From sequence record OZ035771.1: DNA of 64,000 bases. One strand, given 5' to 3'. A program made the position numbers and the translations under genes. Shown here piece after piece: positions 9,237 to 29,501 of the stretch. How positions within the stretch are numbered: position 1 is the stretch's first letter; each line of letters opens with the position of its first letter. The notes below the pieces were generated by a model. The model made no database searches. It was not told the DNA's origin and worked only from the letters and a program-made list of their open reading frames with translations. This stretch comes from Phapecoctavirus DIJ07P2.

Positions 9237-9409
9237 TATGCCTCCTCATAAGCCTTACAGATGACCAAACGCCAAGTCTGCTTGTAGTGTTCTCTTTTCG
9301 CAAGAGCCTCTTTGTAAGAGGGTATACGTTGCGACAGAAGCATCCATTCACAATCTGCACCCATTCTTCCATAAAGCGCGTAACGGATGTTACTTTGTTT
9401 ATCTCCCAT
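9236..9409 (-). CDS. Hypothetical small protein (57 aa), self-derived
   Basis: ATG preceded by TAAGGAGG RBS; MGDKQSNIRYALYGRMGADCEWMLLSQRIPSYKEALAKREHYKQTWRLVICKAYEEA; stop overlaps next start; preferred over track ORF 9181-9372. Confidence 0.5.
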   Translation of the reverse strand: MGDKQSNIRYALYGRMGADCEWMLLSQRIPSYKEALAKREHYKQTWRLVICKAYEEA

Positions 9410-9452: not shown

Positions 9453-9650
9453 TTACACTTTTTCCCAAGTACCAAAAGCACAGGAAGGGTAGATTCCAAC
9501 TTGAGGGTTTCCGTTATCATCTTTGAAAGTAAAACTGTTGTTGTCTTTATCAAGAACTGTAGAATAAATCTTACCAACAGTAACGCAGTTGGAAGCTTGA
9601 CCCAGTTCAGTGAGAGTAAGACATTTCATTTTCTGTTTCTTTGTAGCCAT
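9453..9650 (-). CDS. Hypothetical protein (65 aa)
   Basis: ORF with AAGGAG RBS. Confidence 0.5.
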   Translation of the reverse strand: MATKKQKMKCLTLTELGQASNCVTVGKIYSTVLDKDNNSFTFKDDNGNPQVGIYPSCAFGTWEKV

Positions 9651-9732
9651 TTATAAAATCTCCTTAGTAAGTGAATCTTTATTCTACACAAAGAGCTTTG
9701 CACATGTCAAGTAACTCTTTGTCAGATTAGTC

Positions 9733-10002
9733 TTAATGATTGGTGATGTTGATCACAATCTTGGTTTCAACTTTAGCCCAACAGGAGTCTGCTTCATTAA
9801 AACGACTATTCACAATGTATTCTCCTGCACGAGAACCTGTTAAACACACTGCACCTGTATCTGTAGCCAAATAGTATTCTCGTTCTTGTTCATCTACTTC
9901 TGCAATGTAATAGTAGAAAACAGACATAGGTTCAATTTCAGATAAACGGTATAACTTTGGAACAGGGGATTTCTCGATAAACTCAACAGAAGTTTTACTC
10001 AT
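9733..10002 (-). CDS. Hypothetical protein (89 aa)
   Basis: ORF coupled to next gene. Confidence 0.5.
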   Translation of the reverse strand: MSKTSVEFIEKSPVPKLYRLSEIEPMSVFYYYIAEVDEQEREYYLATDTGAVCLTGSRAGEYIVNSRFNEADSCWAKVETKIVINITNH

Positions 10003-17448: not shown

Positions 17449-17628
17449 ATGGCACGTTTAGCAGACCATGAAATCTTTAAACCTATTCTGAACCACTATG
17501 ATGAACTTAAAGCAGTGTTGGATTGTTATAGAGAGGATGAAGAACGTTTGGAAGTCAATCTTAAGATAGTTCTGATGAAAGCTTTTCAAGACGGGCAAGC
17601 TAAAGTTTTAGAAGGCATGAAAAAATGA
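17449..17628 (+). CDS. Hypothetical protein (59 aa)
   Basis: Start at ATG (MARLADH) after AAAGGAG RBS. Confidence 0.45.
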   Translation: MARLADHEIFKPILNHYDELKAVLDCYREDEERLEVNLKIVLMKAFQDGQAKVLEGMKK

Positions 17629-18167
17629 GAATAACTGATGAATATGTATTCTTCTTTTCACATAAAGATGTGTTTAGTAATTGGTATATTGCACCCTTTA
17701 CAGAAACTGAACCAGGTTACAATGAGACTTTCTGTTGTGTTGAGCAATATATGATGTGGCGTAAGGCTTTGCTGTTCAAGGATCATGCGATTGCAGCAGC
17801 TATCCTTGATCACTCAACTATACGTGACAACGAGAGGAAACAAGCATACTACAAACGTATGGGTCGAGCGGTATCTGGTTTTAATAATGATATGTGGGAA
17901 GAGAACCGTGAGCGTATTGTTATGCGAGGTTTATGCTTGAAATATGTACAGAATCCAGATTTGTATGCAGACTTACACCTTTACCAATACAAAACGTTTG
18001 TTGAAGCAAGTCCTTACGATAAGGTTTACGGTATTGGAATGGGAATGTATGAACCAGGGGTGCTAAATCCGGTCAACTGGAAAGGGCAAAATCTTTTAGG
18101 TAAATATCATAACAAACTGATCGAAATACTTTTCCCAGACAAAATACCGCAAAGACGATATTTGTGA
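17625..18167 (+). CDS. NADAR-domain (YbiA/DUF1768-like) protein
   Basis: FFFS..DVFSNWY, CCVEQYMMWRKALLF, VEASPYDKVYGIGMG, GQNLLGKYHNKLIEIL match the NADAR pattern as recalled. Confidence 0.65.
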   Translation: MRITDEYVFFFSHKDVFSNWYIAPFTETEPGYNETFCCVEQYMMWRKALLFKDHAIAAAILDHSTIRDNERKQAYYKRMGRAVSGFNNDMWEENRERIVMRGLCLKYVQNPDLYADLHLYQYKTFVEASPYDKVYGIGMGMYEPGVLNPVNWKGQNLLGKYHNKLIEILFPDKIPQRRYL

Positions 18168-18223
18168 TATTTTAACTTTTTTCATTTTTAGAACAAAGGT
18201 GTCACTTTGTAGCACAGAAATAA

Positions 18224-18259
18224 GGCTCCTACAGCACCGTAGAGAGCCTATTATTTTGT
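18224..18259 (+). terminator. Putative intrinsic terminator after the NADAR gene
   Basis: AGGCTC...GAGCCT stem followed by ATTATTTTG. Confidence 0.45.
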
Positions 18260-18390
18260 CCTATACAAACCCTTGTCTTTTTCAGTTTGCATCACTAGGA
18301 TTCGATCTGAGTGGGTTCCTGAAGGTCTGCCAATAAGATTAAAGGTTATCTCAAATTCCCACTACCTATTATCTCAAAAATCCCTCAAAT

Positions 18391-18456
18391 TATTTAAACT
18401 TTTTAAGAATTTACAAAAGTGAAAGTTGAAAACCAAAATTTAAAGTTTAGGAAAAT
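18391..18456. repeat. AT-rich direct repeat, copy 1
   Basis: TATTTAAACTTTTTAAGAATTTACAAAAGTGAAAGTTGAAAACCAAAATTTAAAGTTTAGGAAAATT; near-duplicate at 18529-18593. Confidence 0.6.
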
Positions 18457-18528
18457 TATCTTAAAATGTCAGATACAAAACAAAACTCAAAAGTCAAGGA
18501 AAATTTTAAAAATTTTGCGCGCCCACAG

Positions 18529-18593
18529 TATTTAAAGTTTTTTTGCTTTTACAAAAATGAAAGTACAAAAGCAAAATTTAAAGTTTACAAAAA
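18529..18593. repeat. AT-rich direct repeat, copy 2
   Basis: TATTTAAAGTTTTTTTGCTTTTACAAAAATGAAAGTACAAAAGCAAAATTTAAAGTTTACAAAAATT. Confidence 0.6.
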
Positions 18594-18607
18594 TTTATGC
18601 AGATGGG

Positions 18608-18655
18608 AATGAGAAGAGTTCTCATATGGAAATGCAAATGATAATGATTCGCATT
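18608..18655. promoter_or_regulatory. Fur-box-like palindromic operator candidates (AATGAGAAGAGTTCTCAT; AATGATAATGATTCGCATT)
   Basis: Resemble the 19-bp Fur consensus GATAATGATAATCATTATC as recalled. Confidence 0.35.
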
Positions 18656-18693
18656 TAGGTTTATAAATGAGATTGATTCTTATTTGATAAGGT

Positions 18694-18714
18694 AAATGAT
18701 AATCATTCTCATTT
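18694..18714. promoter_or_regulatory. Fur-box-like operator candidate (AAATGATAATCATTCTCATTT)
   Basis: About 15 of 19 positions match the Fur consensus by eye; shares ATCATTCTCAT core with sites at 28963 and 29141. Confidence 0.4.
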
Positions 18715-18972
18715 AGAGAATGACGCGCAGGGGCGGTGTTTGTCTCGCGCTCCCGTGTCCCCTCGCCATGTAATAAGAATAACAGATCCAGCCAGGAAAG
18801 CAAGCGATTATTTTATCTTTACATTTCTTTACAAATATATAGCGCCCAGCCTACCGGCGATCAACCTTCCAACCAGCGCCCTGGTATGTTAGCCCCGCCT
18901 TTACGCCGTGGGGGTGGCGCTTCCTCTTCTGTATGTAAAACAGTATAAGCCCGATCCCTGGGCTTGTCAAGA

Positions 18973-19239
18973 TTATTTTTTGTTTTCTTGCCAGGTTAGG
19001 ACACCTAGCCAAAAATGAATATCACCTTTTCCCCAATGTGGTATATTGCTTTCTTTCCCACCTTCACGCGCCCAGGTAAAACCGCCCGTGTAACTTTGTA
19101 ATTGATAACTATCCTCGACCTTATAATCTGATAGGTTGAGAACTGTTTCAACCTTTAAGCCCGTTGCGCTTGCTACCTGGTGCACCGTGCCGCCTTGCCA
19201 GCCCAATGAGTGCATAAGGTGTAATGTAGTATTTGTCAT
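18973..19239 (-). CDS. Hypothetical protein (88 aa) in GC-richer spacer
   Basis: Only leftward ORF in this region; weak RBS. Confidence 0.3.
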   Translation of the reverse strand: MTNTTLHLMHSLGWQGGTVHQVASATGLKVETVLNLSDYKVEDSYQLQSYTGGFTWAREGGKESNIPHWGKGDIHFWLGVLTWQENKK

Positions 19240-19348
19240 GGTGTCGCCCTTTCTTTGTTGTGCGCCCTGGTTGGCGCGGTAGAAAGATGATAGCCCTTTC
19301 CTTTATATATAGCAAGCAAAAAGAAAATAAAAAAGATTGAAAAAGTGA

Positions 19349-19407
19349 TTGACGTTCGCCAGGTGGCGGCATAATATTTACCACGTAGGGCGGCAATGGT
19401 GCCGCTC
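19349..19407 (+). promoter_or_regulatory. Promoter + 5' stem-loop cassette (-35 TTGACG, -10 TAATAT, hairpin GCGGC-AATGGT-GCCGC)
   Basis: 17-nt spacer; hairpin starts a few nt after predicted +1. Confidence 0.55.
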
Positions 19408-19426
19408 ATTATTTGGAATTAAGATC

Positions 19427-19624
19427 ATGGCAACATTGCACATTGTGGCGAAAGCTGGACAAATCAACGTAGTAGTAAACGGTTTTACTGAGTTCAGTCA
19501 TCCCCAGGATGATCATGAAACGGTTTTATCTTTCATTGATTCACTGTTAGAAATGGGAGTCATTACAGAAGACCAGCACGCTACAAAATGCAAACGCGTT
19601 AATCAGATTGCAGGAATAGAATAA
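19427..19624 (+). CDS. Small hypothetical protein (65 aa)
   Basis: First ATG downstream of cassette hairpin; track start at 19349 lies upstream of the promoter. Confidence 0.5.
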   Translation: MATLHIVAKAGQINVVVNGFTEFSHPQDDHETVLSFIDSLLEMGVITEDQHATKCKRVNQIAGIE

Positions 19625-19630
19625 AAAGTA

Positions 19631-19689
19631 TTGACAACAACCAACAACCTGATAAGATGTATCACATAAGGCGGGAAATGGTTTCCCGC
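19631..19689 (+). promoter_or_regulatory. Promoter + 5' stem-loop cassette (TTGACA, TGnTAAGAT, GCGGGAA..TTCCCGC)
   Basis: Extended -10; hairpin followed by ACAACAGAAGAGAG RBS region. Confidence 0.55.
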
Positions 19690-19713
19690 TCACAACAGAA
19701 GAGAGAAATCATC

Positions 19714-19986
19714 ATGGCATCATATAGCGCAACAATGATCGTAGCTGGTACCACTGGTAAACCTATGAGCGGTGGCGGATCTTTCGCTAATATTAATATT
19801 GATGGGCGTTTATCCCTGGACGCAGCGATCACCGTGGCGCGGGAAACATTTAAGAAAGAATGTGATTTCAACAAGCAAGATTATTTAGGTTTTGCTATTG
19901 AAAAAACGGCGCGTTTTGTTGATTATAAAAGTCCGAAAATGGTTGATACTACACTAAAAGCGCAAGATGTAGCCTTTTTGCTTTAA
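19714..19986 (+). CDS. Small hypothetical protein (90 aa)
   Basis: ATG (MASYSATMIV) after cassette and AGAGAG RBS. Confidence 0.5.
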   Translation: MASYSATMIVAGTTGKPMSGGGSFANINIDGRLSLDAAITVARETFKKECDFNKQDYLGFAIEKTARFVDYKSPKMVDTTLKAQDVAFLL

Positions 19987-19989
19987 GGC

Positions 19990-20045
19990 TTGACATTAAC
20001 GAATAATTTGTTAATATGTTACATAAAGCGGGAACTATTCCCGCT
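19990..20045 (+). promoter_or_regulatory. Promoter + 5' stem-loop cassette (TTGACA, TAATAT, AGCGGGAA..TTCCCGCT)
   Basis: Same architecture as other cassettes. Confidence 0.5.
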
Positions 20046-20062
20046 ATTTGTAAGGTGGTAGA

Positions 20063-20320
20063 ATGTTTTACATCAAATTAAAAGGTCACGTGATCGCGTT
20101 CAAGGATAACGCTTTTTACAGATTAGCAAAATATGCGTTAATACATCCCCATTATGTTTATATAAGGGGGCGTGATGAAATAAATATCTTTGATCAAACA
20201 ACATGCGAGAACATCGAGATCCGCAAGGTTGGCGTACGTGACTATCGTACATCTTTCTACCCTTGCAAGGATTCAGCAAGTCTTTTTAAAGTATGCCAAT
20301 TGTTGAAAAAAGGTGGTTAA
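20063..20320 (+). CDS. Small hypothetical protein (85 aa)
   Basis: AAGGTGG RBS. Confidence 0.5.
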   Translation: MFYIKLKGHVIAFKDNAFYRLAKYALIHPHYVYIRGRDEINIFDQTTCENIEIRKVGVRDYRTSFYPCKDSASLFKVCQLLKKGG

Positions 20321-20321
20321 T

Positions 20322-20879
20322 ATGGGCCGCGAATATGTGATCCAGTCTTGGGTAAAACATGAAGCAGATGATCCGCGCATCATTCCTGATTATCTTGTCG
20401 ATGAATCCACGGGCTATAGCGGGGAGCAAATAGGTAACAGATTAGCACGTAGTAACGGCAACGTAAAAGCGCGTTATGTGCGCCCTGGCTGGCTGGCAAA
20501 TGGTAACGCTGATTTATCCAGTGCGGAAGATGCGAGCGACGGCGCGAAAGATAATCCTTTGTACAAAGTTGATCCGGCTTTTCGTGTCCTGGATGAATAC
20601 CCCAGCAAGATAGCGGCGCTCGATCAGGCCCTGGAAAGTAAGCGCATCACCTGGACCGCTTACAACATGGCAAAAAACGTACTTGATGGTAAATTGATTC
20701 AAGCTGAAAGAAAATTAGCCAAAATTGCAGCCATAGCCCAGGAGGAAGACGAGGAGACAACGGAAGAGGAAGAGTACGAAGAGATCCCGCCGTTGTTGTG
20801 TGTTGATGCTTTTCCTGATTATCAGCCGACAGAGGAAGAAAAAAGGATCGCACTAGAAAACTTTGAAAATAGTCTTTGA
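20322..20879 (+). CDS. Hypothetical protein with acidic C-terminal tail (185 aa)
   Basis: ATG after AAAAGGTGG RBS; C-terminus EEDEETTEEEEYEE. Confidence 0.5.
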   Translation: MGREYVIQSWVKHEADDPRIIPDYLVDESTGYSGEQIGNRLARSNGNVKARYVRPGWLANGNADLSSAEDASDGAKDNPLYKVDPAFRVLDEYPSKIAALDQALESKRITWTAYNMAKNVLDGKLIQAERKLAKIAAIAQEEDEETTEEEEYEEIPPLLCVDAFPDYQPTEEEKRIALENFENSL

Positions 20880-20932
20880 CATATCGCCGCCACTGGCATA
20901 ATATTTACCACGTAGGGCGGCAATGGTGCCGC
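20876..20932 (+). promoter_or_regulatory. Promoter + 5' stem-loop cassette (TTGACA, TAATAT, GGCGGC-AATGGT-GCCGC)
   Basis: Near-identical to cassette at 19349. Confidence 0.55.
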
Positions 20933-20962
20933 TCATAGTGAAATTATGCAAGAGGCTTACAA

Positions 20963-21058
20963 TGATTAATAAAGGAAATAGCTTGACGGTTGGAACGATT
21001 AACGCTATCATTCTCGCCGTTCCATTTTGGGTTGTAGTAGCGGCTATTATTTTCTAAA
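20963..21058 (+). CDS. Micro-ORF, hydrophobic peptide (31 aa), self-derived
   Basis: AAGAGG RBS 6 nt before ATG; MINKGNSLTVGTINAIILAVPFWVVVAAIIF. Confidence 0.4.
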
Positions 21059-21066
21059 AAATATTC

Positions 21067-21127
21067 TTGACAACGTTTTTTAATCTGATAAGATGTATCA
21101 CATAGGGCGGCGGAATACTTCCCCGCC
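21067..21127 (+). promoter_or_regulatory. Promoter + 5' stem-loop cassette (TTGACA, TGATAAGAT, GGGCGGCGGAA..TTCCCCGCC)
   Basis: Conserved block TAAGATGTATCACATAGGGCGG. Confidence 0.55.
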
Positions 21128-21148
21128 AAAACAAAAAAGGGTAACACA

Positions 21149-21511
21149 ATGAGCAAGCAAATCAATACTATCATGTTTAATCTGGTATCTTTCCGCGATG
21201 ATATGAAAAATTTACCACGTGAAACGGTTGATATTCATGTTTCAGCTTATCGCGCCCTTATTGACATGTTACCGCTAAAACGTGATCAACATGCCGCTAA
21301 TATGATGCTTAATGCTATGCTTAAAAAGATGATTCAAACGGATCTCACCCTGGCATATGAGTATCAAGGGCGCTTATATGCAAATTACAACAGAGCGGTA
21401 CCTGGTCTGGGAAGTACTGAAGAGTTGCACGGCTTAAACCTGGATCAAAACACTTGGGATAGTATGCGCCGCGTTATGGTATGGGCCGAAAGCGGTAAAA
21501 TTTACGAATAA
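21149..21511 (+). CDS. Small hypothetical protein (120 aa)
   Basis: ORF after cassette. Confidence 0.5.
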   Translation: MSKQINTIMFNLVSFRDDMKNLPRETVDIHVSAYRALIDMLPLKRDQHAANMMLNAMLKKMIQTDLTLAYEYQGRLYANYNRAVPGLGSTEELHGLNLDQNTWDSMRRVMVWAESGKIYE

Positions 21512-21517
21512 AAACGG

Positions 21518-21575
21518 TTGACACTGTTTTTTATTCTGGTATAGTTTATCACGTAGGGCGGCAATGGTGCCGCCA
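21518..21575 (+). promoter_or_regulatory. Promoter + 5' stem-loop cassette (TTGACA, TATAGT, GGCGGC-AATGGT-GCCGCC)
   Basis: Same architecture. Confidence 0.5.
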
Positions 21576-21594
21576 ACAATAAAAGGTTAACATC

Positions 21595-21774
21595 ATGACC
21601 ATCATTGCAAAAACTGAGATTATAGGTTTAGATTCGATCCTCCTGGCTTATGAGGAAACTTTAAAAATGTATGTAGTGACCTATGGTGATTATGTGCGTG
21701 AATACGAATACATTGATCTTGCTTTCGAATGTTACATTCGCCAGGTCAATAAAGCCTATAACGATTATCGTTAA
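21595..21774 (+). CDS. Small hypothetical protein (59 aa), self-derived
   Basis: ATG after AAAAGG RBS; MTIIAKTEIIGLDSILLAYEETLKMYVVTYGDYVREYEYIDLAFECYIRQVNKAYNDYR. Confidence 0.45.
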   Translation: MTIIAKTEIIGLDSILLAYEETLKMYVVTYGDYVREYEYIDLAFECYIRQVNKAYNDYR

Positions 21775-21793
21775 AAGTTTTAGTCTTATACTA

Positions 21794-21846
21794 TTGACAA
21801 TGAGTGATAGTATAAGCATAATAACTTTTATCGGGAATACTTCCCA
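21794..21846 (+). promoter_or_regulatory. Promoter + imperfect 5' stem-loop cassette (TTGACA, CATAAT)
   Basis: Hairpin CGGGAA-TAC-TTCCC(A) degenerate. Confidence 0.45.
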
Positions 21847-21870
21847 CTAACCAAAAAAGAGAGTAATATC

Positions 21871-22236
21871 ATGGCTATTAATATCAATGTTTCCTCTTAT
21901 GCTACCCTGGCTGACACGGCTAAAATTGAATTATCCAGCATTGAGGCGGTGCATATTAGCGCCCGTCGTTGGTTTCAACAGTCCTACGGTAACACATATT
22001 TTTCTTTAATGGTTGACGTTGAGATCGGCGGTAAACTGATCGAGGTGGTTAACGTTCCGTTTCAATATGGTTATGGTGATCATTTTGATACCGTCGCCCT
22101 GGAAGAATTTAGCAAGGTTATTAATATGGAAGGTAAAGAGTTTTCACGCGGCGCGTATCTTTCCCGTTTTTGCCGTGATAATGGGATCACTGTATACAGT
22201 CATGCGAGCGATGTTAAACGTAAAAAAGATTTATAA
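21871..22236 (+). CDS. Small hypothetical protein (121 aa)
   Basis: ORF after cassette; N-terminus MAINI shared with 22744 ORF. Confidence 0.5.
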   Translation: MAININVSSYATLADTAKIELSSIEAVHISARRWFQQSYGNTYFSLMVDVEIGGKLIEVVNVPFQYGYGDHFDTVALEEFSKVINMEGKEFSRGAYLSRFCRDNGITVYSHASDVKRKKDL

Positions 22237-22243
22237 AAAGCAT

Positions 22244-22302
22244 TGACAGCACGAATAAAAAGAGTAAACTGTATTACATAGAGAGCGGGAACACTTCCCG
22301 CC
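22244..22302 (+). promoter_or_regulatory. Promoter + 5' stem-loop cassette (TTGACA, TAAACT, GCGGGAA..TTCCCGCC)
   Basis: Conserved block TAAACTGTATTACATAG. Confidence 0.5.
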
Positions 22303-22326
22303 TCACTGAAAAAAGAGATTAACATC

Positions 22327-22566
22327 ATGGCTAAATCAAAAATGTTCTTAGGTCACAAAAATAAAACTCATTGGAATGTAAGCCTTTGGATTAATAACGA
22401 TGAATCGTTATATCGGTTGGCGAAAGAATTTATCGCCGCTAATACTAATCGTAATGATGCTGCCCGTGATATGATGTTATTCCTGGAACAAACTGGACAA
22501 GATAAAACTCCAGACGGTTTCAAGTATAGCACTACAGCGATCCGCGCCGCGATGGTTGGAATGTAA
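22327..22566 (+). CDS. Small hypothetical protein (79 aa)
   Basis: ORF after cassette. Confidence 0.5.
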   Translation: MAKSKMFLGHKNKTHWNVSLWINNDESLYRLAKEFIAANTNRNDAARDMMLFLEQTGQDKTPDGFKYSTTAIRAAMVGM

Positions 22567-22661
22567 AGGAGATATAAAAATGAAACATCGTTCTACCTAT
22601 CTAACAAAACGTTTTAGCTTAGATCATAAATTGGGCTATTACGGAAGAAATAGAAAATAAT

Positions 22662-22721
22662 TTGACAACGTTTAAAATTAGTGTAAGATGTATCACATAG
22701 GGCGGGAAGTGGTTTCCCGCC
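22662..22721 (+). promoter_or_regulatory. Promoter + 5' stem-loop cassette (TTGACA, TAAGAT, GGGCGGGAA..TTCCCGCC)
   Basis: Same architecture. Confidence 0.55.
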
Positions 22722-22743
22722 AACAACAGAGAGATTAAAGATT

Positions 22744-22971
22744 ATGGCTATCAATATTGTTCGCGTATCCGGCACCGTTGGCACTTCCCAAGTTATTGCA
22801 GTTGTAACAAACAAAAAGATTAATGATGTATGTGAAAGCTTGAATAAGTGGGCTATTGTTAATTTTGGGGAATATGCAAGCGTCGAGTACATCGAATCCT
22901 ACCAGGTGCCAACCATCAGCCTAACCGATCTCAACGTTGATCGCTTGTTGTGCCTGGATGAATTAATCTGA
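22744..22971 (+). CDS. Small hypothetical protein (75 aa)
   Basis: ORF after cassette. Confidence 0.5.
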   Translation: MAINIVRVSGTVGTSQVIAVVTNKKINDVCESLNKWAIVNFGEYASVEYIESYQVPTISLTDLNVDRLLCLDELI

Positions 22972-22982
22972 AAAAAGATTGT

Positions 22983-23037
22983 TGACACCGGAAAGAAAAA
23001 GAGTAGAATATATTACATAGGGCGGCAATGGTGCCGC
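22983..23037 (+). promoter_or_regulatory. Promoter + 5' stem-loop cassette (TTGACA, TAGAAT, GGCGGC-AATGGT-GCCGC)
   Basis: Same architecture. Confidence 0.55.
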
Positions 23038-23062
23038 TCACAACAGAAGAGAGATTATCACG

Positions 23063-23278
23063 ATGGCTAATATCCGCACTTTACTGAAAAATGCAAGTCA
23101 AGTTTTATTTTCAGATGATGAGTATTTCAATAAAGACATTACAGGCGTGAAAAATTTAAAAGACGTGAAGGATGTTATCGGTATTCGTGGATCTTTACGT
23201 AAAGGTGACTACTATGGTAACAAGGTGCAATATAAACTGTCAAAGGATTACAATTTTACTTTGACAATTATTTCATAA
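23063..23278 (+). CDS. Small hypothetical protein (71 aa)
   Basis: ORF after cassette. Confidence 0.5.
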   Translation: MANIRTLLKNASQVLFSDDEYFNKDITGVKNLKDVKDVIGIRGSLRKGDYYGNKVQYKLSKDYNFTLTIIS

Positions 23279-23283
23279 AACCG

Positions 23284-23345
23284 CTTGCAATACTGCAAAA
23301 ATAAAGTAAACTGTATTCATCAAGGCGGTGGAATAGCCAACCGCC
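23284..23345 (+). promoter_or_regulatory. Promoter + 5' stem-loop cassette (CTTGCA, TAAACT, GGCGG..CCGCC)
   Basis: Weaker -35; hairpin retained. Confidence 0.45.
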
Positions 23346-23369
23346 TAACAAAGAGAAGAGGAAAACATC

Positions 23370-23537
23370 ATGATCACTTTCGCTACCCGTGAAGCCGCTC
23401 GCAACGTTGCACGTAAAGTTAACGCCGCCAACCTGGGCGCTACGCTTAAAGCTCCGGTAAAAGATGAATCAGGCAAATGGATCTTCCCTGGTCTGCGTCA
23501 TGCTGACAAGTTAGGTACTTTAAGCCTTAAAAAATAA
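23370..23537 (+). CDS. Small basic protein (55 aa), self-derived
   Basis: GAGAAGAGG RBS; MITFATREAARNVARKVNAANLGATLKAPVKDESGKWIFPGLRHADKLGTLSLKK. Confidence 0.45.
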   Translation: MITFATREAARNVARKVNAANLGATLKAPVKDESGKWIFPGLRHADKLGTLSLKK

Positions 23538-23540
23538 TCG

Positions 23541-23580
23541 TTGACTTTTCGTTATAGCGCCTTACAATGGGCGCTATAGA
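23541..23580 (+). promoter_or_regulatory. Promoter variant (TTGACT, TTACAAT) with hairpin AGCGCC..GGCGCT overlapping the -10
   Basis: Differs from canonical cassette in that the stem-loop spans the -10 element. Confidence 0.4.
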
Positions 23581-23612
23581 GAAGAGAAACCACTACTAAC
23601 AAGGAAACCATT

Positions 23613-23834
23613 ATGATCACTTTCGCTATTGTCGCCGTTGTTGCTGGTCAAGTTTACGTAAATGAGACATTTACTACAGAAGACAAGGCAGCAGGAGATA
23701 TAACCGCCGTTTACAATGAGTGCAAGGCAGTAGAAAGGATGTTAGCGCCTTGTATGCTAATGAGTGAACGCCAGGACGGAATAACAGTATTTACTAACAT
23801 TGGAACAGGGTACCAAATGGTAGTAACAAAATAA
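23613..23834 (+). CDS. Small membrane-anchored protein (73 aa)
   Basis: N-terminal hydrophobic MITFAIVAVVAGQVYV. Confidence 0.5.
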   Translation: MITFAIVAVVAGQVYVNETFTTEDKAAGDITAVYNECKAVERMLAPCMLMSERQDGITVFTNIGTGYQMVVTK

Positions 23835-23837
23835 AGC

Positions 23838-23895
23838 TTGACACCGATTTAATTTTTAGTAAACTGTTACACGTAGGGCGGGAATAGTTCCCGCT
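23838..23895 (+). promoter_or_regulatory. Promoter + 5' stem-loop cassette (TTGACA, TAAACT, GGGCGGGAA..TTCCCGC)
   Basis: Same architecture. Confidence 0.55.
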
Positions 23896-23913
23896 CAAAA
23901 AGAGAGAAAGATC

Positions 23914-24267
23914 ATGAAAGCACAAAATGCAATTAAAGAGTACATCCTTGCCGCTATCGGTTTTAATGATTACGGTATTACAACAGAAAAAGAGAAGATC
24001 GCGGAATTGATGCGCCGTTTTAATTCCGAGTACTGGTACCCTGATAACCAATCACGTTTTAATTATAGTATTGTTAAAGCACTTGCATCATGGTTACAAG
24101 GTTTGCCATCAGATATTAATATCGCTTTCGAATATTGGGAAGTGGATCGCTTGTTAACATCCTGGGGATACATTAAAGAGAATAGCAGCGATGATAAAAT
24201 CCAACGAGAAAGGGAAAATTATTGGCTTTATATTGCAGGCGTGATCCTTGCTTGCTCTTATGAATGA
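23914..24267 (+). CDS. Small hypothetical protein (117 aa)
   Basis: ORF after cassette. Confidence 0.5.
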   Translation: MKAQNAIKEYILAAIGFNDYGITTEKEKIAELMRRFNSEYWYPDNQSRFNYSIVKALASWLQGLPSDINIAFEYWEVDRLLTSWGYIKENSSDDKIQRERENYWLYIAGVILACSYE

Positions 24268-24273
24268 TAAACC

Positions 24274-24328
24274 TTGACAATTTTACAAAACAGTTTAAAT
24301 TAACAATATAGCGGCAATGGTGCCGCTC
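24274..24328 (+). promoter_or_regulatory. Promoter + 5' stem-loop cassette (TTGACA, hairpin AGCGGC-AATGGT-GCCGCT)
   Basis: -10 less clear (TTTAAAT/TAACAAT). Confidence 0.45.
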
Positions 24329-24346
24329 ATATAAAGAGGAAACAAA

Positions 24347-24493
24347 ATGAATACATCTAATCGCGCAGAAAAAATTCAATCTTCCAAGATCCGCAAGGCC
24401 TGGAACGAGGAAGTGATCCGCAAAGGCGACAAGCGTAATAAAACAAAGCGCGGGAAGAGTGACAAATATAATTGGATGGATTTAGAGGATTAA
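24347..24493 (+). CDS. Small basic protein (48 aa), self-derived
   Basis: AAAGAGG RBS; MNTSNRAEKIQSSKIRKAWNEEVIRKGDKRNKTKRGKSDKYNWMDLED. Confidence 0.45.
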   Translation: MNTSNRAEKIQSSKIRKAWNEEVIRKGDKRNKTKRGKSDKYNWMDLED

Positions 24494-24500
24494 CATAACA

Positions 24501-24527
24501 AGGGCGCACCAAGCGCCCTTTCTTTTT
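24501..24527 (+). terminator. Intrinsic terminator (AGGGCGC-ACCAA-GCGCCCT + TTTCTTTTT)
   Basis: GC stem followed by T-tract directly after stop at 24493. Confidence 0.65.
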
Positions 24528-24548
24528 ATATGCAGAGGATAAACAAAG

Positions 24549-24734
24549 ATGACTTTAAACGAGCTTAAAACAGCCTACAACGCAACATTAAAAATAGCCG
24601 TGCGTTACCGTGATGCGTATGGTTTTATCGCGCAGGGCGTGATCCTGGGCTTTTCTGACGATGGTTTGATCTATGTTGATGCACATCACAACAAGGTTAA
24701 ACCTGAAAACGTCATTAATATAAAATATCTTTAA
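24549..24734 (+). CDS. Small hypothetical protein (61 aa)
   Basis: ORF after terminator, no cassette upstream. Confidence 0.4.
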   Translation: MTLNELKTAYNATLKIAVRYRDAYGFIAQGVILGFSDDGLIYVDAHHNKVKPENVINIKYL

Positions 24735-24740
24735 AAATGG

Positions 24741-24800
24741 TTGACACCATAACCGGACCTGTTAAACTGTATTACATCAGGCGGGGAATAGTTCCCCACC
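24741..24800 (+). promoter_or_regulatory. Promoter + 5' stem-loop cassette (TTGACA, TAAACT, GCGGGGAA..TTCCCCAC)
   Basis: Same architecture. Confidence 0.55.
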
Positions 24801-24819
24801 ATACAAAAAGGTAAATATT

Positions 24820-25026
24820 ATGATCACCGCAAAACAAGAAAAAATCATTATCGACGTTGCAGCCGTTGCCGCTATCGCTATTATTGGATCTTATTATGAT
24901 ACCCGTTTCCCGTCGGCTATGCATGAGGTCGCCGCCGTTGCATCAGTTGGCGTACTGTTTTACGTTGGTAAACGCTATTTATCACCAATGATTAACAAGC
25001 TGACACCGTGGAAAAATAAAGGTTGA
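24820..25026 (+). CDS. Small membrane protein (68 aa)
   Basis: Hydrophobic IIIDVAAVAAIAIIGSYY and VAAVASVGVLFYVG segments. Confidence 0.5.
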   Translation: MITAKQEKIIIDVAAVAAIAIIGSYYDTRFPSAMHEVAAVASVGVLFYVGKRYLSPMINKLTPWKNKG

Positions 25027-25078
25027 TCCTGTTTTACATTATGTTATAGTTATCGTGTAGGGCGGCAATGGTGCCGCG
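25023..25078 (+). promoter_or_regulatory. Promoter + 5' stem-loop cassette (TTGATC, TATAGT, GGCGGC-AATGGT-GCCGC)
   Basis: Same architecture; track ORF start at 25068 falls inside the hairpin. Confidence 0.5.
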
Positions 25079-25097
25079 CCCCTTTGAGGATGCAATC

Positions 25098-25382
25098 ATG
25101 AGTAAAGCTAACACCGTGCTAATGTTTTCCCTGATTAATGATCTCGCTTACTTGTCCAACATGACGCAGGAGGGTAACACATTAACGGCAACATTCACCA
25201 ATAAGCTTGACCGAGTGATCATCGTCTCACTGAAAACAGTTAGTAAAGGCTTTTACTTGTTAGCTTATCATTGTATCACTGATACCGATGAGACAAGCCA
25301 GGACTATAGCGCCCCTTTCCCTGAATCAATGGCACGGGAGATCATCGCCGCCGTTGTAAATGATGGTTTGTTTACTGCATAA
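25098..25382 (+). CDS. Small hypothetical protein (94 aa)
   Basis: Start moved to ATG (MSKANTVL) downstream of hairpin. Confidence 0.5.
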   Translation: MSKANTVLMFSLINDLAYLSNMTQEGNTLTATFTNKLDRVIIVSLKTVSKGFYLLAYHCITDTDETSQDYSAPFPESMAREIIAAVVNDGLFTA

Positions 25383-25400
25383 AATAATTTAGAAAAAGGC

Positions 25401-25460
25401 TTGCAATCATTTTGAGATAGTGTATATTTAATTCATAGGGCGGCGGGAATAGTTCCCAAA
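25401..25460 (+). promoter_or_regulatory. Promoter + imperfect 5' stem-loop cassette (TTGCAA, TATATT)
   Basis: Hairpin GGGCGGCGGGAATAGTTCCC degenerate. Confidence 0.4.
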
Positions 25461-25480
25461 GCAAACGAGAGGATTACACG

Positions 25481-25600
25481 ATGAGCAAGTACACAGTAGA
25501 ATACACGGTAGAGAATCCGGCAGTATCCGAAGGTAAAAAGATGACATTTACCATCAGTATAATCGCTTTCGTTGTCACTATCTTATCAATCATCTTATAA
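25481..25600 (+). CDS. Micro-ORF, single-pass membrane peptide (39 aa), self-derived
   Basis: GAGAGG RBS; MSKYTVEYTVENPAVSEGKKMTFTISIIAFVVTILSIIL. Confidence 0.4.
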   Translation: MSKYTVEYTVENPAVSEGKKMTFTISIIAFVVTILSIIL

Positions 25601-25610
25601 GGTGCACACC

Positions 25611-25772
25611 ATGAAAACAACAGATATTATCAAAGAGATCGCCCTTGCCGCTGGCGTTGAGATCGAGGAAGTGATCGCGCTCAATCTTACAGAAAACGAT
25701 CTGCGCAACTATGAAGCGGAAAGCGTGAAAGCAAGTGGCGCGGTCCTGGCATATAATCCGGCTAACAAATAG
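25611..25772 (+). CDS. Small hypothetical protein (53 aa)
   Basis: ATG (MKTTDIIKEI) after AAGGTG RBS. Confidence 0.45.
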   Translation: MKTTDIIKEIALAAGVEIEEVIALNLTENDLRNYEAESVKASGAVLAYNPANK

Positions 25773-25773
25773 T

Positions 25774-25830
25774 TTGACAAGCTGAATCAACCTGATAAGA
25801 TGTATCACATAGGGGCGACAAGCGCCCCGC
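25774..25830 (+). promoter_or_regulatory. Promoter + 5' stem-loop cassette (TTGACA, TGATAAGAT, GGGGCG-ACAA-GCGCCCC)
   Basis: Same architecture with different hairpin sequence. Confidence 0.55.
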
Positions 25831-25849
25831 CTAACAGAGAGATAGAATC

Positions 25850-26128
25850 ATGACCATCGCCAAATTATCCGCCGAAGAAATCGAACAAGTGCTAACTACT
25901 AACCTGGAACAATGGAAACGTGAGGCAGATATACAATCAGCACAATGGCTTAACGAGAAGTTAACACCGGATGATCTGAGTAAGATTATAGATCCTCAAT
26001 TCTACGAAGATATTCACGACACCGTTTTAAGCGTCGAGGATGTACTTGATAAGCATTATATTGCTACTGATTTGCAGGTTTACGGGCGTAAAAACTTTAT
26101 TACTATTCACGACATTTACAATAACTAA
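25850..26128 (+). CDS. Small hypothetical protein (92 aa)
   Basis: ORF after cassette. Confidence 0.5.
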   Translation: MTIAKLSAEEIEQVLTTNLEQWKREADIQSAQWLNEKLTPDDLSKIIDPQFYEDIHDTVLSVEDVLDKHYIATDLQVYGRKNFITIHDIYNN

Positions 26129-26136
26129 GGGATAAC

Positions 26137-26265
26137 ATGAATCCGAAAGATATGCAAGCATGGAAAGGGTACGACGATCTAAGCGCCTTGCGCAATAAGT
26201 CAAGCCGTAACCTTAGACGGTTAGAAGCAAAGAAAAAGAAAAAACAGTTTGACAAGTCCGCTTAA
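26137..26265 (+). CDS. Small basic protein (42 aa), self-derived
   Basis: MNPKDMQAWKGYDDLSALRNKSSRNLRRLEAKKKKKQFDKSA; 3' end overlaps next cassette -35. Confidence 0.35.
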   Translation: MNPKDMQAWKGYDDLSALRNKSSRNLRRLEAKKKKKQFDKSA

Positions 26266-26306
26266 TCTGGTAAAGTGTATCTCGTAGGGCGGCAATGATG
26301 CCGCTC
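26249..26306 (+). promoter_or_regulatory. Promoter + 5' stem-loop cassette (TTGACA, TAAAGT, GGCGGC-AATGAT-GCCGC)
   Basis: Same architecture. Confidence 0.55.
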
Positions 26307-26325
26307 ACAAGAAGAGAGAAAAATC

Positions 26326-26610
26326 ATGAAGATCACAAAAAGCCTAACTAATTATGCAGCACGTCGCGGATTATGCTTAACCGTTGAAAACTCAGGGAAA
26401 GAAGACTTTTTGTGTTTTTGGGAGCTTGAAAATGATTGCGAGTGGATGTTTTCTTATTCTATCTGCGAAGATCAAAACGGTTGTTTGTTAACCTGGCGCG
26501 GTAATATCTATTTACCGGAAGAAATTAAAGAAGAGTTACCAGGTACGATCATGACAGAGAGACAGCTTAAGGAAGTGATCAATTTTGTAGGGCAAAACAT
26601 TAAAAAATAA
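26326..26610 (+). CDS. Small hypothetical protein (94 aa)
   Basis: ORF after cassette. Confidence 0.5.
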   Translation: MKITKSLTNYAARRGLCLTVENSGKEDFLCFWELENDCEWMFSYSICEDQNGCLLTWRGNIYLPEEIKEELPGTIMTERQLKEVINFVGQNIKK

Positions 26611-26611
26611 T

Positions 26612-26674
26612 TTGACAGCACGCAAACAACGTAGTAAAGTTTACCACATAGGGCGGCGGAATGGTCCACCGCTC
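26612..26674 (+). promoter_or_regulatory. Promoter + 5' stem-loop cassette (TTGACA, TAAAGT, GGGCGGCGGAATGGTCCACCGCTC)
   Basis: Same architecture. Confidence 0.5.
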
Positions 26675-26695
26675 ACAACAGAAGAGAAACAAATC

Positions 26696-26866
26696 ATGAT
26701 CCCGACTATGTTTTATGTATCGCGCAAAGGTCACAATATTTTTTGGTCTGAAGATTTAAATGAAGCCATGACGTTTGCCCGTGATCGTGTTGCTATCGGT
26801 GGCGTTAACATCACCGTAACCGATGAAAATGGCATTGAATACTATAACGGCGACGATGAAGAGTAA
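26696..26866 (+). CDS. Small hypothetical protein (56 aa)
   Basis: Start moved to ATG (MIPTMFYVS) downstream of hairpin. Confidence 0.45.
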   Translation: MIPTMFYVSRKGHNIFWSEDLNEAMTFARDRVAIGGVNITVTDENGIEYYNGDDEE

Positions 26867-26931
26867 TTAATAAGGCGGGGAATACTTCCCGCCACGCAGT
26901 GAATTTTCCGTTTGGGAAGTAAAAAATAAAT

Positions 26932-26993
26932 CTTGACGATAATTTGTTATCTGATAGAATGTATTTCGTAGGGCGGGGCAATAAGGCAAGCCC
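26932..26993 (+). promoter_or_regulatory. Promoter + 5' stem-loop cassette (TTGACG, TAGAAT, GGGC..GCCC)
   Basis: Same architecture; a second hairpin (GCGGGGAATACTTCCCGCC) sits just upstream at 26875-26895. Confidence 0.5.
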
Positions 26994-27010
26994 ACAAAGA
27001 GGAAAATAAA

Positions 27011-27379
27011 ATGAGCAAATCAGCAATTAAAGCACTTGAAAAAGCACAAGAAGTGATCGCAACGTCAACCACTGGCGCAAAGGTTAATCTCGTTTGTTAT
27101 CTGACAGATGAAACTATCCGTAAAAATTGGCGTAATGCTGATTTACTGGCTTGCTTATTGATTAATAGTGTCGCTAATGCTTTCCAGTGTGAAACAGCCG
27201 AGAGCCTGGAGGAAAACTTGTTTGATAATATGGATCAAGCCATTGAAACCTATATACAATCAAACCTGGATAGCTGGAACAGTAAAACATGGCCCGACAA
27301 TTTACGCGATACAACTGATCAACTGATCCGCCTTGCCCTGATGGTTGAACGCGATAACGTTTACAACAGCACAAAGTAA
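27011..27379 (+). CDS. Small hypothetical protein (122 aa)
   Basis: ORF after cassette. Confidence 0.5.
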   Translation: MSKSAIKALEKAQEVIATSTTGAKVNLVCYLTDETIRKNWRNADLLACLLINSVANAFQCETAESLEENLFDNMDQAIETYIQSNLDSWNSKTWPDNLRDTTDQLIRLALMVERDNVYNSTK

Positions 27380-27388
27380 GATTATACA

Positions 27389-27410
27389 AGGGCGCACTAA
27401 GCGCCCTTTA
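27389..27410 (+). terminator. Putative terminator hairpin (AGGGCGC-ACTAA-GCGCCCT)
   Basis: GC hairpin after stop; weak T-tract. Confidence 0.4.
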
Positions 27411-27443
27411 ACGTAAAGAAATGTAAATAATGCGCTATCCCTA

Positions 27444-27470
27444 TTGACAGGGGATCGGCGTTATATTATA
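27444..27470 (+). promoter_or_regulatory. Sigma70-type promoter without stem-loop (TTGACA, TATATT)
   Basis: Last promoter of the array, precedes 27518 ORF. Confidence 0.45.
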
Positions 27471-27517
27471 TTTAACTTACTGGCAGCAAACAACGAAACG
27501 AAACAAAGGACAACATC

Positions 27518-27937
27518 ATGAACATTAAATCAAATAATCCAGCTTACTCCTTCGATAACGCTTTTTGTCACGGTAGCGCCGCCAAAGGCTTCGAAATCGA
27601 TGGTAAATTGGTTATCGTGAACGTTGACGGGGAAGAGGTTGCAGTGTATCCGGTAAACGATGTTAAAAGCCGTTTACAATGCCGCATGGATGTTACCGCA
27701 TATCAGCTTGATCCGGTCCGTGTAGTTGCCCTGGTATTAGAGGAAGAGATCAAAGCAATGCATCACAGTAATAAGTTTATTGGTGACGCGCAGGATAATA
27801 TGAACGTTTGCCGCCATAAAGTTAATGAAGCATTGAAAGAATGCGGTTTTAAGGATCTGATGATTAAACGTGATGAAAAATTCCGCTTTCGTAATGACCT
27901 GGCAAACCGGATCTACTCAATCTATGAAGCTTTATAA
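27518..27937 (+). CDS. Hypothetical protein (139 aa)
   Basis: Last ORF of the array, followed by strong terminator. Confidence 0.5.
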   Translation: MNIKSNNPAYSFDNAFCHGSAAKGFEIDGKLVIVNVDGEEVAVYPVNDVKSRLQCRMDVTAYQLDPVRVVALVLEEEIKAMHHSNKFIGDAQDNMNVCRHKVNEALKECGFKDLMIKRDEKFRFRNDLANRIYSIYEAL

Positions 27938-27952
27938 TCGACAACAAAACAA

Positions 27953-27979
27953 GGGGCGCACAAAGCGCCCTTTCTTTTT
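27953..27979 (+). terminator. Intrinsic terminator (GGGCGC-ACAAA-GCGCCC + TTTCTTTTT)
   Basis: GC stem plus T-tract after stop at 27937. Confidence 0.65.
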
Positions 27980-27989
27980 GCCCGAACAA

Positions 27990-28900
27990 TGTTGATAGCT
28001 TTCGCCTATGAAAAACCGACACAGAACAAAACTGAATAAATCGCGGTATCGAGCTAATCAACCAGCAAACGAATAACCATACCTCCCAGGGTTACAGGCT
28101 GTTAGAGAGCCATTTAGAGCGGTTAAAATCGATCAACAACCAACAACAAACCATCAAAAACACCCTTTTACCTCCTTTCTAGTGCAATGATAACCATTAT
28201 CATCTACCCATGATTATCTATGCAATATAAGCGCATAATTATAATGTTGATAATAGTTCGCAACAACTAACCAACAAACAACATAAAACAATAAGCAAAC
28301 TAATCATAATCAAAGGAATAATAGCAAGATGATTGATAACGACAAACAATCGAACCATGATGAATACTAAGCAAGATAACGATAACACGACAAAACAACC
28401 AACTAACGAACAATAACAAACGAAACCATTAAAATAATAACTATTAGCAAAATAGTGCCTGAATGAAATCATTACAAAACGAATCATTCACAGAGTCATC
28501 ATTAGCACGCTATGCCGGACACATAGCGAGCTAATAATAAGCCAACTACACCCCAACAATCATAACCATCGGTGACGGTTATTTCTTGTTACTGCGTAGC
28601 TTGCAATAATTGCAAGCGTAATGACGCTTACACTTATTGCGCTGGCTTATTATTAGCATTATATGTAATTACCAAGATCATAACATTAGCGCAATAACAA
28701 TAGTCATTGTAATAATTACATGAGTTATCACTATCGTTCAGTGTGATCATCATTAGCACAGTGAATAATTGCACGTAGCAACATGAGCGAATAGCGACAG
28801 GTTGCATAGTGTGCACATAGTGTATAAACATACAAGAAAATAAAGGCTAATCTTTTGGGGGCGAATACTATCGCGTAGCGATATGTTGAGCACCTTCTCT
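27990..28900. other. Non-coding region with strong A+C strand skew, GATAA-type hexamers and palindromes
   Basis: Plus strand dominated by A/C (e.g. CAACAACCAACAACAAACCATCAAAAACACC); palindromes TGATAACCATTATCA (28188-28202) and CTTGCAATAATTGCAAG (28600-28616); no convincing ORF. Confidence 0.5.
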
Positions 28901-28962
28901 TAAACGTAAATAAAATCAGAAAATTCTTGATTTATTTTAGTTTTTATGTTAATAAACGTTTA

Positions 28963-28980
28963 AATAATAATCATTCTCAT
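28963..28980. promoter_or_regulatory. Fur-box-like operator candidate (AATAATAATCATTCTCAT) followed by TATAAATA
   Basis: Shares ATCATTCTCAT core with 18694 site. Confidence 0.35.
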
Positions 28981-29140
28981 ATAAATAATAGTCTGCTTGT
29001 CATGAGCGGGATTAGTTGACAATGTTCCGTCATATGATGAAGTTGCCAAGCCATTGATAAATAAGTGTTTGTGTGATTTATAATCAGGTGGCCCACCTTG
29101 TCGCTATGTTGGCATGAGCCTTGCATAAGTCATTGAATAC

Positions 29141-29161
29141 GAATGATAATTATTCTCATTC
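29141..29161. promoter_or_regulatory. Fur-box-like palindromic operator candidate (GAATGATAATTATTCTCATTC)
   Basis: Near-palindrome; matches Fur consensus at most positions by eye. Confidence 0.4.
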
Positions 29162-29501
29162 GCATGATATTTGGGAATTGTCGCTGCGTGGACCTGACGG
29201 CCCGAAAATTCGCGTTAAGCACTTCTTACGTATACGCCATGATTTTTGCCATATGATATTGATTCTATTAGATATTCTTGCCATTATTGCCATGAAACAT
29301 GGTGTCCCGAAATAATCTCTCCCCGTAGATATTTTGGGTTACTTTTTATACAAGAGTGGGGTGTCAAAAATAATCAGTATATATGGGATAATTGATAGGA
29401 ATCCCCTATGATAATTCGATTGTAATTCCCTAAGATTGATCGTATGATGTTGGTGATTGATGATTGCCATGAAAGATGGCTAACGATGAGAGGAGATTGT
29501 C

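Follow-up and report, generated by a model that had tools for sequence, protein, structure and literature searches.

The noncoding DNA of Phapecoctavirus DIJ07P2, a virulent phage of E. coli, carries palindromes that closely match Fur boxes, which are textbook elements. They were studied in a 64,000-nucleotide stretch of the phage genome (sequence record OZ035771.1), referred to here as the window. The weight of the evidence favors their being host Fur boxes that are maintained by selection. Judged from sequence comparisons, these sites very likely bind Fur in vitro, and Fur binding is probably their main function in vivo. The explanation we favor, that they are iron-responsive host Fur sites kept by the phage in its noncoding DNA, is on balance somewhat probable. 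The window belongs to a phAPEC8-like myovirus (genus Phapecoctavirus, subfamily Stephanstirmvirinae), and relatives including tuntematon, iGC_PHA_EC001 and Schickermooser cover 94-100% of it at approximately 95% identity.

A sequence-only reading of the window had reported four sites resembling the Fur consensus and one additional palindrome. All five elements are present where it placed them, and a check of open reading frames and coordinates agrees that they lie in two long noncoding regions bracketing an array of small open reading frames. Two further sites, at 18666-18684 and 28186-28204, had been missed. The ATCATTCTCAT core that the sites were thought to share is exact at 18702-18712 and 28970-28980, and the remaining sites are one or two bases off. 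As a group, the sites read AATGA[T/G]AATnATT[C/A]TCATT. The site at 28963 shares 18 of 19 positions with the Fur box of E. coli ryhB. Members of three site pairs (18631/18637, 18689/18695 and 29136/29142) are offset by exactly 6 bp, as are pairs in phages T5 and alia (see below). Overlapping Fur dimers shifted by 6 bp have been described (Chen 2007, PMC2189734).

These resemblances were quantified with a palindromic 19-bp Fur matrix, built from the best site in each of 16 Fur-regulated promoters of E. coli K-12 MG1655 (fepA-fes, fepD-entS, fepB-entC, fhuA, fecA, fecI, cirA, tonB, exbB, fiu, fhuE, feoA, ryhB, fhuF, sufA and fur; consensus AATGATAATCATTATCATT, 16.6 bits). In leave-one-out tests the host promoters score a median of 17.9 bits and a maximum of 24.5 bits (ryhB). 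The top six matrix hits of the entire 64 kb are the six phage sites, at 20.1-27.4 bits, and the best of them is the proximal box at 18695. They thus exceed background by a wide margin and outscore most validated E. coli Fur sites, which bears out the resemblance that the sequence-only reading had suspected. No hit in the remaining 61 kb of the window reaches 18 bits. Hits of at least 20 bits are expected 0.02 times per simulated window and 0.009 times in 3 kb of noncoding DNA, compared to six observed. Likewise, searching for AATGATAATCATTCTCATT with up to three mismatches returns six loci where 0.04 are expected. A chance origin of the sites is excluded.

The left sites form an array of tandem 29-bp units starting at 18608, 18637, 18666 and 18695 (Table 1), a period that is not helically phased. 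The first unit can also be drawn as a 7-3-7 palindrome, AATGAGAAGAGTTCTCAT, at 18608-18625. A 50-bp segment that includes the boxes at 18666 and 18695 (18664-18715) is inverted in tuntematon and Schickermooser (L001 4167-4217 and L017 1165-1215). The outer arms of the two palindromes bound this inversion, and its occurrence between isolates implies that the palindrome arms recombine. A captured fragment of a host promoter was considered as the source of the array and rejected, since none of 5,426 E. coli genomes contains a match to it.

Table 1. Coordinates of the Fur-like sites and associated features in the window
Feature	Position	Strand	Basis or score
Left array, four 29-bp tandem units with one Fur-like palindrome each	18608-18723		tandem and direct-repeat detection
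Unit 1, AATGAGAAGAGTTCTCATA, degenerate Fur-like palindrome	18608-18626		16.1 bits
Unit 2, AATGATAATGATTCGCATT at 18637-18655 (24.4 bits) with overlapping site at 18631-18649 (18.3 bits)	18631-18655		matrix scan
Unit 3, AATGAGATTGATTCTTATT	18666-18684		20.1 bits; mismatch search, matrix scan
Unit 4, proximal box, AATGATAATCATTCTCATT at 18695-18713 (27.4 bits) with shifted site at 18689 (12.9 bits)	18689-18713		matrix scan
AATGATAACCATTATCATC, right noncoding region	28186-28204		20.8 bits; mismatch search, matrix scan
AATAATAATCATTCTCATA, in terminal repeat	28963-28981		22.9 bits; matrix scan, repeat mapping
AATGATAATTATTCTCATT at 29142-29160 (26.7 bits) with shifted site at 29136 (17.8 bits), in terminal repeat	29136-29160		matrix scan, repeat mapping
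Conserved GC-rich noncoding unit adjoining the proximal box	18714-18985	+ (provisional)	alignments, covariation
Direct terminal repeat (physical genome ends)	28889-29217		homology to exact 329-bp repeat of Schickermooser
Early small-ORF (open reading frame) cassette array, between the boxes	19631-27973	+	promoter scan, terminator, box scan

The motif can also be recovered with no reference to Fur. Complete noncoding regions of 11 phage lineages, 12.6 kb in total, were submitted to motif discovery from 300 random seeds, with neither a palindrome constraint nor a Fur prior. It converges on AAATGAGAATGATTCTCATTT, with approximately 39 sites and the palindrome AAATGAGAATSATTCTCATTT. Compared with the E. 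coli Fur matrix, this motif gives a correlation of r = 0.936 at the correct offset (offset 1) and of 0.05 at neighboring offsets, and the maximum after column permutation is 0.68. The 7-1-7 dyad (TGATAATnATTATCA) is present in the correct register. ArgR, Zur, NsrR and TyrR were considered as alternative binders in an informal comparison with their consensus sequences; their half-site spacing does not fit.

Bacterial genomes associate the same palindrome with iron. When one genome per species was scanned, the perfect phage-consensus palindrome AATGAGAATSATTCTCATT was found in at least 120 bacterial species from many phyla. Ten of the genes directly downstream were sampled. They encode four TonB-dependent receptors, an FTR1 iron permease, a ZnuA/SitA-type metal-binding protein, a multicopper oxidase, an FbpA-like binding protein, a ferredoxin-reductase-like enzyme and a porin, so that at least eight of the ten have iron or metal uptake functions. 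This association suggests that the G-variant palindrome (see below) is a typical box upstream of bacterial iron-uptake genes.

Viral contigs in IMG/VR provide a further source of sequences. At least 120 contigs contain the best site as an exact 19-mer, compared to 0 and 3 for two composition-matched controls. Among the matches listed, 17% of sites fall in long open frames versus 71% of all positions, and at 46 of 120 loci there are clusters of two to seven sites in a span of 300 bp, with one locus holding 16 in all. Eight boxes are near contig ends where 4.3 are expected (p ~0.06). Two unrelated viral contigs, L102 and L020, contain 16 and 12 Fur-like sites of at least 18 bits. Fur-box arrays may be widespread beyond phages of enterobacteria.

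A motif search across related phages, proposed along with the sequence-only reading, finds boxes in Justusliebigvirus and rV5-like phages, and also in T5, within its injection stop signal region. In phage alia, from the sister genus Justusliebigvirus, there are four boxes to the left and four to the right of the equivalent block. Its right region is mostly unalignable. A site identical to the 29142 box is present in alia. The left array and approximately 250 nt to its right are found at 70-75% identity in Vequintavirinae (V18, SSE121, PBES02, POP17, a Klebsiella Mydovirus and Av-05). The proximal box is near-invariant across Vequintavirinae and Stephanstirmvirinae while its flanks diverge, a pattern seen in Mydovirus, Seunavirus, Certrevirus, Vequintavirus, Av-05 and Justusliebigvirus. 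Upstream of the proximal box there are between zero and four others, and some lineages hold the proximal box alone.

T5-like phages match the left array directly by BLAST. In T5 itself (NC_005859), sites at 9552 (22.3 bits), 9656 (27.4 bits) and 9691/9697 (22.3/21.4 bits) reside within a feature annotated as 'injection stop signal' in the left terminal repeat. Phage phiR2-01 has at least eight sites of 18-24 bits (record 9168-9397). Overall, the injection stop region of T5-like phages (T5 9552-9715; phiR2-01 2009-2238 of L015) contains four to nine near-consensus boxes of 18-27 bits. These boxes are located between DnaA-box inverted repeats and DRD repeats, approximately 33 bp from the major nick at 9748-9749. 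Davison's analysis of the T5 region lists them as palindromes and DRC repeats and proposes the involvement of DnaA; Fur is not mentioned. By tblastn, neither the window nor two relatives contain a match to any protein of the T5 terminal repeat, including A1 and A2. There is no DnaA-box cluster in the two noncoding regions, which contain one DnaA-like box, and no excess of such boxes in the window.

Two of the right sites lie close to the physical genome ends. A terminal repeat of 328 bp has been reported (Korf 2019, PMC6563267), and many GenBank records begin or end at the 28889-29217 boundaries. Because the exact repeat of Schickermooser maps to these coordinates, the sites at 28963 and 29142 are inside the terminal repeat. 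They are therefore 57-74 bp and 236-253 bp from the physical ends, and each is present in two copies per virion genome. Both edges of the repeat, at 28886-28900 and 29214-29228, have in common the motif T(T)R/AGCACYTTCT (the slash marks the boundary), which is also found in alia and is likely a terminase cleavage or recognition motif. Since the boundaries carry this separate motif, the boxes are not the cleavage motif.

A conserved GC-rich noncoding unit begins directly to the right of the proximal box. Its end is formed by a hairpin (18947-18965) and then a T-run; other lineages keep both elements, with a hairpin of different sequence. An internal hairpin, 18870-18876/18881-18888, shows compensatory changes at five of five tested pairs with 96% pairing, and none of 500 shuffles is as good; once distant homologues were added, it was the only well-supported hairpin. 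The unit also contains a candidate helix (18855-18859/18904-18908), a second hairpin that could not be aligned in register and a CU-rich stretch, TTCCTCTTCTGT, at 18920-18932. It has no Rfam match and no tRNA. A small protein gene at 18736-18948 was considered and rejected, as it has no ATG, would encode a low-complexity product and is conserved only where the DNA is. The conserved unit may be an undescribed phage RNA. The annotation of Klebsiella phage vB_Kpn_K45PH128C2 (L014) places tRNA-Met and tRNA-Ile across the boxes and the conserved unit (1504-1657). ARAGORN finds no tRNA there, so this annotation is probably mistaken.

Searching with the core of this unit (TACCGGCGATNNACCTT) recovers further, more distant homologues in large phage contigs. 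Wherever boxes exist, the proximal one is always 147-158 nt upstream of the conserved core. Three IMG/VR contigs (L166, L173 and L188) have a different repeat, GTGATAGTT/GTTACTAT/GTGACTATT, in place of the boxes. This repeat precedes the TACCGGCGAT core by approximately 60-230 nt and stands before the same CTGAATGACGGGCAGGGG block, and one further lineage keeps the conserved core alone. Replacement of the boxes by another repeat ahead of the same core suggests a regulator swap. Together, the constant spacing between a lone box and the conserved unit and the repeat replacement in a sister lineage point to an operator role at the left locus. A candidate plus-strand promoter, TTGAAT-18-CAGAAT, whose spacer is filled by the box, is clear in relatives and weak in the window. 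A candidate minus-strand promoter was identified by eye as TTGCAA-17-TATATT in Klebsiella and Cronobacter phages. Its counterpart in the window, TTGCTT-16-TATTCT (18803-18776), points toward the boxes. Most boxes in the window overlap no convincing promoter.

Plus-strand genes run from approximately 12 kb to approximately 40 kb of the window, and some 35 small open reading frames of unknown function occupy 19650-27940. Between 19631 and 27472 the cassette block contains approximately 20 sigma-70 promoters on the plus strand, each having a perfect TTGACA and a spacer of 16 nt. There is roughly one per intergenic gap, so the cassettes resemble early genes with promoters of their own. The block is closed by a strong terminator at 27951-27973. 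Because no box falls within it, the boxes bracket an early block driven by host RNA polymerase rather than acting as operators of its promoters.

The left long noncoding region (18168-19656) is interrupted by one small minus-strand gene (18973-19239), and the right one spans 27938-29501. Directly to the left of the former is a gene for a NADAR-domain protein (17625-18167; Pfam E = 8e-35). Besides this domain, neighboring proteins match only PHROGs of unknown function, and no iron-related cargo or initiator-like protein is found among them. To the left of the array are AT-rich direct repeats (18346-18600), with 72-nt copies at 18386 and 18524 that are 82% identical and TTATCTCAAAATCCC repeats at 18346-18394. 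These repeats could be an unwinding element or sites for another factor. The right noncoding region includes a strongly strand-asymmetric A/C-rich tract (28000-28700; AT skew +0.21, GC skew -0.15), within which CAACAAAC-type repeats have a 128-bp spacing (28144, 28272 and 28400).

The sequence identity of the palindromes with Fur boxes, their statistical excess, conservation and positions are observed, while occupancy by Fur, repression and dependence on iron are inferred. If the palindromes are host Fur sites, their operation can be envisioned as follows. Dimers of Fe2+-Fur would bind the 7-1-7 motif TGAGAATnATTCTCA with high affinity. After entry into iron-replete cells, phage DNA would be bound by Fur at the left array (18608-18713), at the 28186 box and, in either terminal-repeat copy, at both sites. 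Among local targets, the conserved noncoding unit is the most evident. Under ample iron, Fur presumably represses or roadblocks transcription of this unit, and an iron-starved host would release it. This specific iron-responsive operator model for the conserved unit is possible but less likely than not. Sites in the terminal repeat and of the T5 type would probably act alike on unmapped transcripts, or as Fur-bound boundaries. As genomes replicate, their sites could collectively divert Fur from the promoters of the host. Recruitment of Fur without a classical promoter, whether as a boundary, a roadblock or a means of sequestration, accounts better for the arrays, the copies in the terminal repeat and the arrangement in T5. 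A more ambitious scheme is doubtful when taken whole. According to this scheme, large virulent phages of enterobacteria, from three or more mutually unrelated groups (T5-like, rV5-like and phAPEC8-like), deliberately connect the ends and early regions of their genomes to the Fur-iron circuit of the host. The arrays would gate early development or DNA transfer by host iron status, or titrate Fur to derepress iron uptake. The injection-stop palindromes of T5 would be Fur boxes, and the proximal box of rV5-like and phAPEC8-like phages would control a conserved and hitherto undescribed structured noncoding RNA.

Several observations weigh against the palindromes being iron-responsive Fur sites. 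None of the approximately 20 cassette promoters carries a Fur box by matrix scan, and no recognizable promoter overlaps the boxes in the terminal repeat or those of T5. The promoter at the proximal box is poor in the window (GTAAAT-18-GAGAAT), and the scan called no plus-strand promoter there. The strand on which the conserved unit is transcribed is given as plus provisionally. A stable overall fold of this RNA was sought at 18714-18990 and rejected for either strand, with ordinary energy (z ~ -1), and a consensus fold of eight sequences shows weak covariation overall. Phage sites favor TGAGAAT (G 0.71 at box position 6), compared to TGATAAT in the E. coli regulon, and this preference could reflect a binder other than Fur. 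The search for phage regulators covered these 64 kb of a genome of approximately 150 kb.

Four alternatives were ranked, beginning with the possibility that the boxes are purely a sponge for Fur, followed by a phage-encoded Fur-like binder, Fur-dependent anti-silencing and, last, purely structural palindromes. Multicopy Fur boxes derepress Fur-regulated reporters, which is the basis of the Fur titration assay, and a cell contains several thousand copies of Fur. Boxes with no local target might similarly sequester Fur during phage replication, derepressing the host regulon (iron uptake, nrdHIEF and RyhB) to supply iron or deoxynucleoside triphosphate (dNTP) capacity. The sites are stronger than almost all host sites, clustered, noncoding, duplicated by the terminal repeat and not tied to promoters, and viral contigs carry arrays of up to 16. 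This alternative is nevertheless unlikely, as several lineages keep one box at a fixed distance from the conserved unit, which is too few for a sponge, and the gain within a short lytic cycle is speculative. The regular 29-bp spacing is reminiscent of iterons and, along with the systematic G at box position 6, the proximity to AT-rich repeats, the location within the terminal repeat and the mostly uncharacterized neighboring proteins, would suit a phage protein with Fur-like specificity that controls early transcription, replication or end processing. Such an operator is disfavored because T5-like, rV5-like and phAPEC8-like phages have the motif in common with no detected shared proteins in these regions, and because by tblastn the window encodes no Fur homologue. 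In addition, the G-variant palindrome is typical upstream of iron-uptake genes in many bacterial phyla, the 6-bp offsets match Fur clusters, and the replication origins of T5 are reported to be mid-genome, outside of the terminal repeat (10.1101/866236). It is accordingly rated as quite improbable.

The two remaining alternatives fare worse. At the ftnA promoter of E. coli, Fur acts by anti-silencing against H-NS. Fur bound to the AT-rich, repeat-rich noncoding flanks of the early block could in the same manner keep H-NS or read-through transcription out of or inside it, which would account for boxes that bracket some 20 strong promoters instead of overlapping them and for the retention of this bracket in the sister genus. 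The T5 arrangement differs, however, the fixed spacing to the conserved unit goes unexplained, and H-NS binding to the flanks found no support in this analysis, which makes this a very improbable mechanism. The palindromes might instead form cruciforms or hairpins for ejection arrest, packaging or end recognition, with their likeness to Fur boxes being incidental. T5 boxes do reside inside the injection stop signal, near the calculated shear point of first-step transfer, two window boxes are within the terminal repeat, and the segment between two boxes has been inverted between isolates. A structural role would not fix one specific sequence across unrelated phages, though, and the repeat boundaries have their own motif, AGCACYTTCT, while the paired DnaA boxes of the T5 injection stop region were not found in the window. 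We give this explanation hardly any credence, and host Fur sites remain the favored reading.

Viewed as host Fur sites, the palindromes can be compared with several known systems. They have the same 19-bp 9-1-9 (7-1-7) dyad, in the same register, as enterobacterial Fur boxes such as those of ryhB, fhuA, fepA-fes, fecI and iucA. Their scores match or exceed those of validated sites (the fhuA box is TATAATAATCATTCTCGTT), and they overlap with 6-bp shifts as in enterobacterial Fur clusters. Unlike these boxes, they occur in a virulent phage rather than upstream of iron genes, are mostly off recognizable -35/-10 elements, and reside in 29-bp tandem units and inside a terminal repeat. Host Fur boxes in temperate phage DNA are described for stx1 of Shiga-toxin phages and sitABCD on lambdoid phages (PMC6969025; PMC5552940). 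In those phages a single box is found at the promoter of cargo that is useful to the lysogen, in contrast to noncoding arrays in strictly virulent phages lacking iron-related cargo. The window also resembles Repeat Region 3 of T5, with its injection stop palindromes (palE-palJ) and DRC repeats, in having Fur-like boxes in repeat-rich noncoding DNA associated with a terminal repeat. In T5, however, the repeat is 10.2 kb long and the array is approximately 9.6 kb into it, adjoining paired DnaA boxes and DRD repeats, whereas the repeat of the window is 329 bp and the sequence searched contains no IRC/IRD paired DnaA boxes and no A1/A2 homologues. Finally, tandem, regularly spaced repeats of a protein-binding type in noncoding DNA recall plasmid and phage iterons and transcription-factor decoy arrays. 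Unlike iterons, their core is the site of a host global regulator rather than of a replicon-specific initiator.

In the literature covered, from which most subscription journals are absent so that an earlier mention is possible, phage Fur boxes are reported only at the temperate cargo genes sitABCD and stx1. The same sources contain no report of Fur boxes for virulent phages, for Phapecoctavirus or for the T5 terminal repeat. The sites described here, and the presence of their motif in unrelated large phages such as T5, suggest a previously undescribed link between these phages and host iron sensing. If host Fur binds the arrays, iron status would be an input to, or a target of, infection by widely used therapeutic and model phages of the phAPEC8-like, rV5-like and T5-like groups, which would be relevant to phage therapy in iron-limited host tissues. 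The injection stop palindromes of T5 would gain a concrete and easily tested candidate ligand, and the conserved, structured noncoding unit would gain a candidate regulator.

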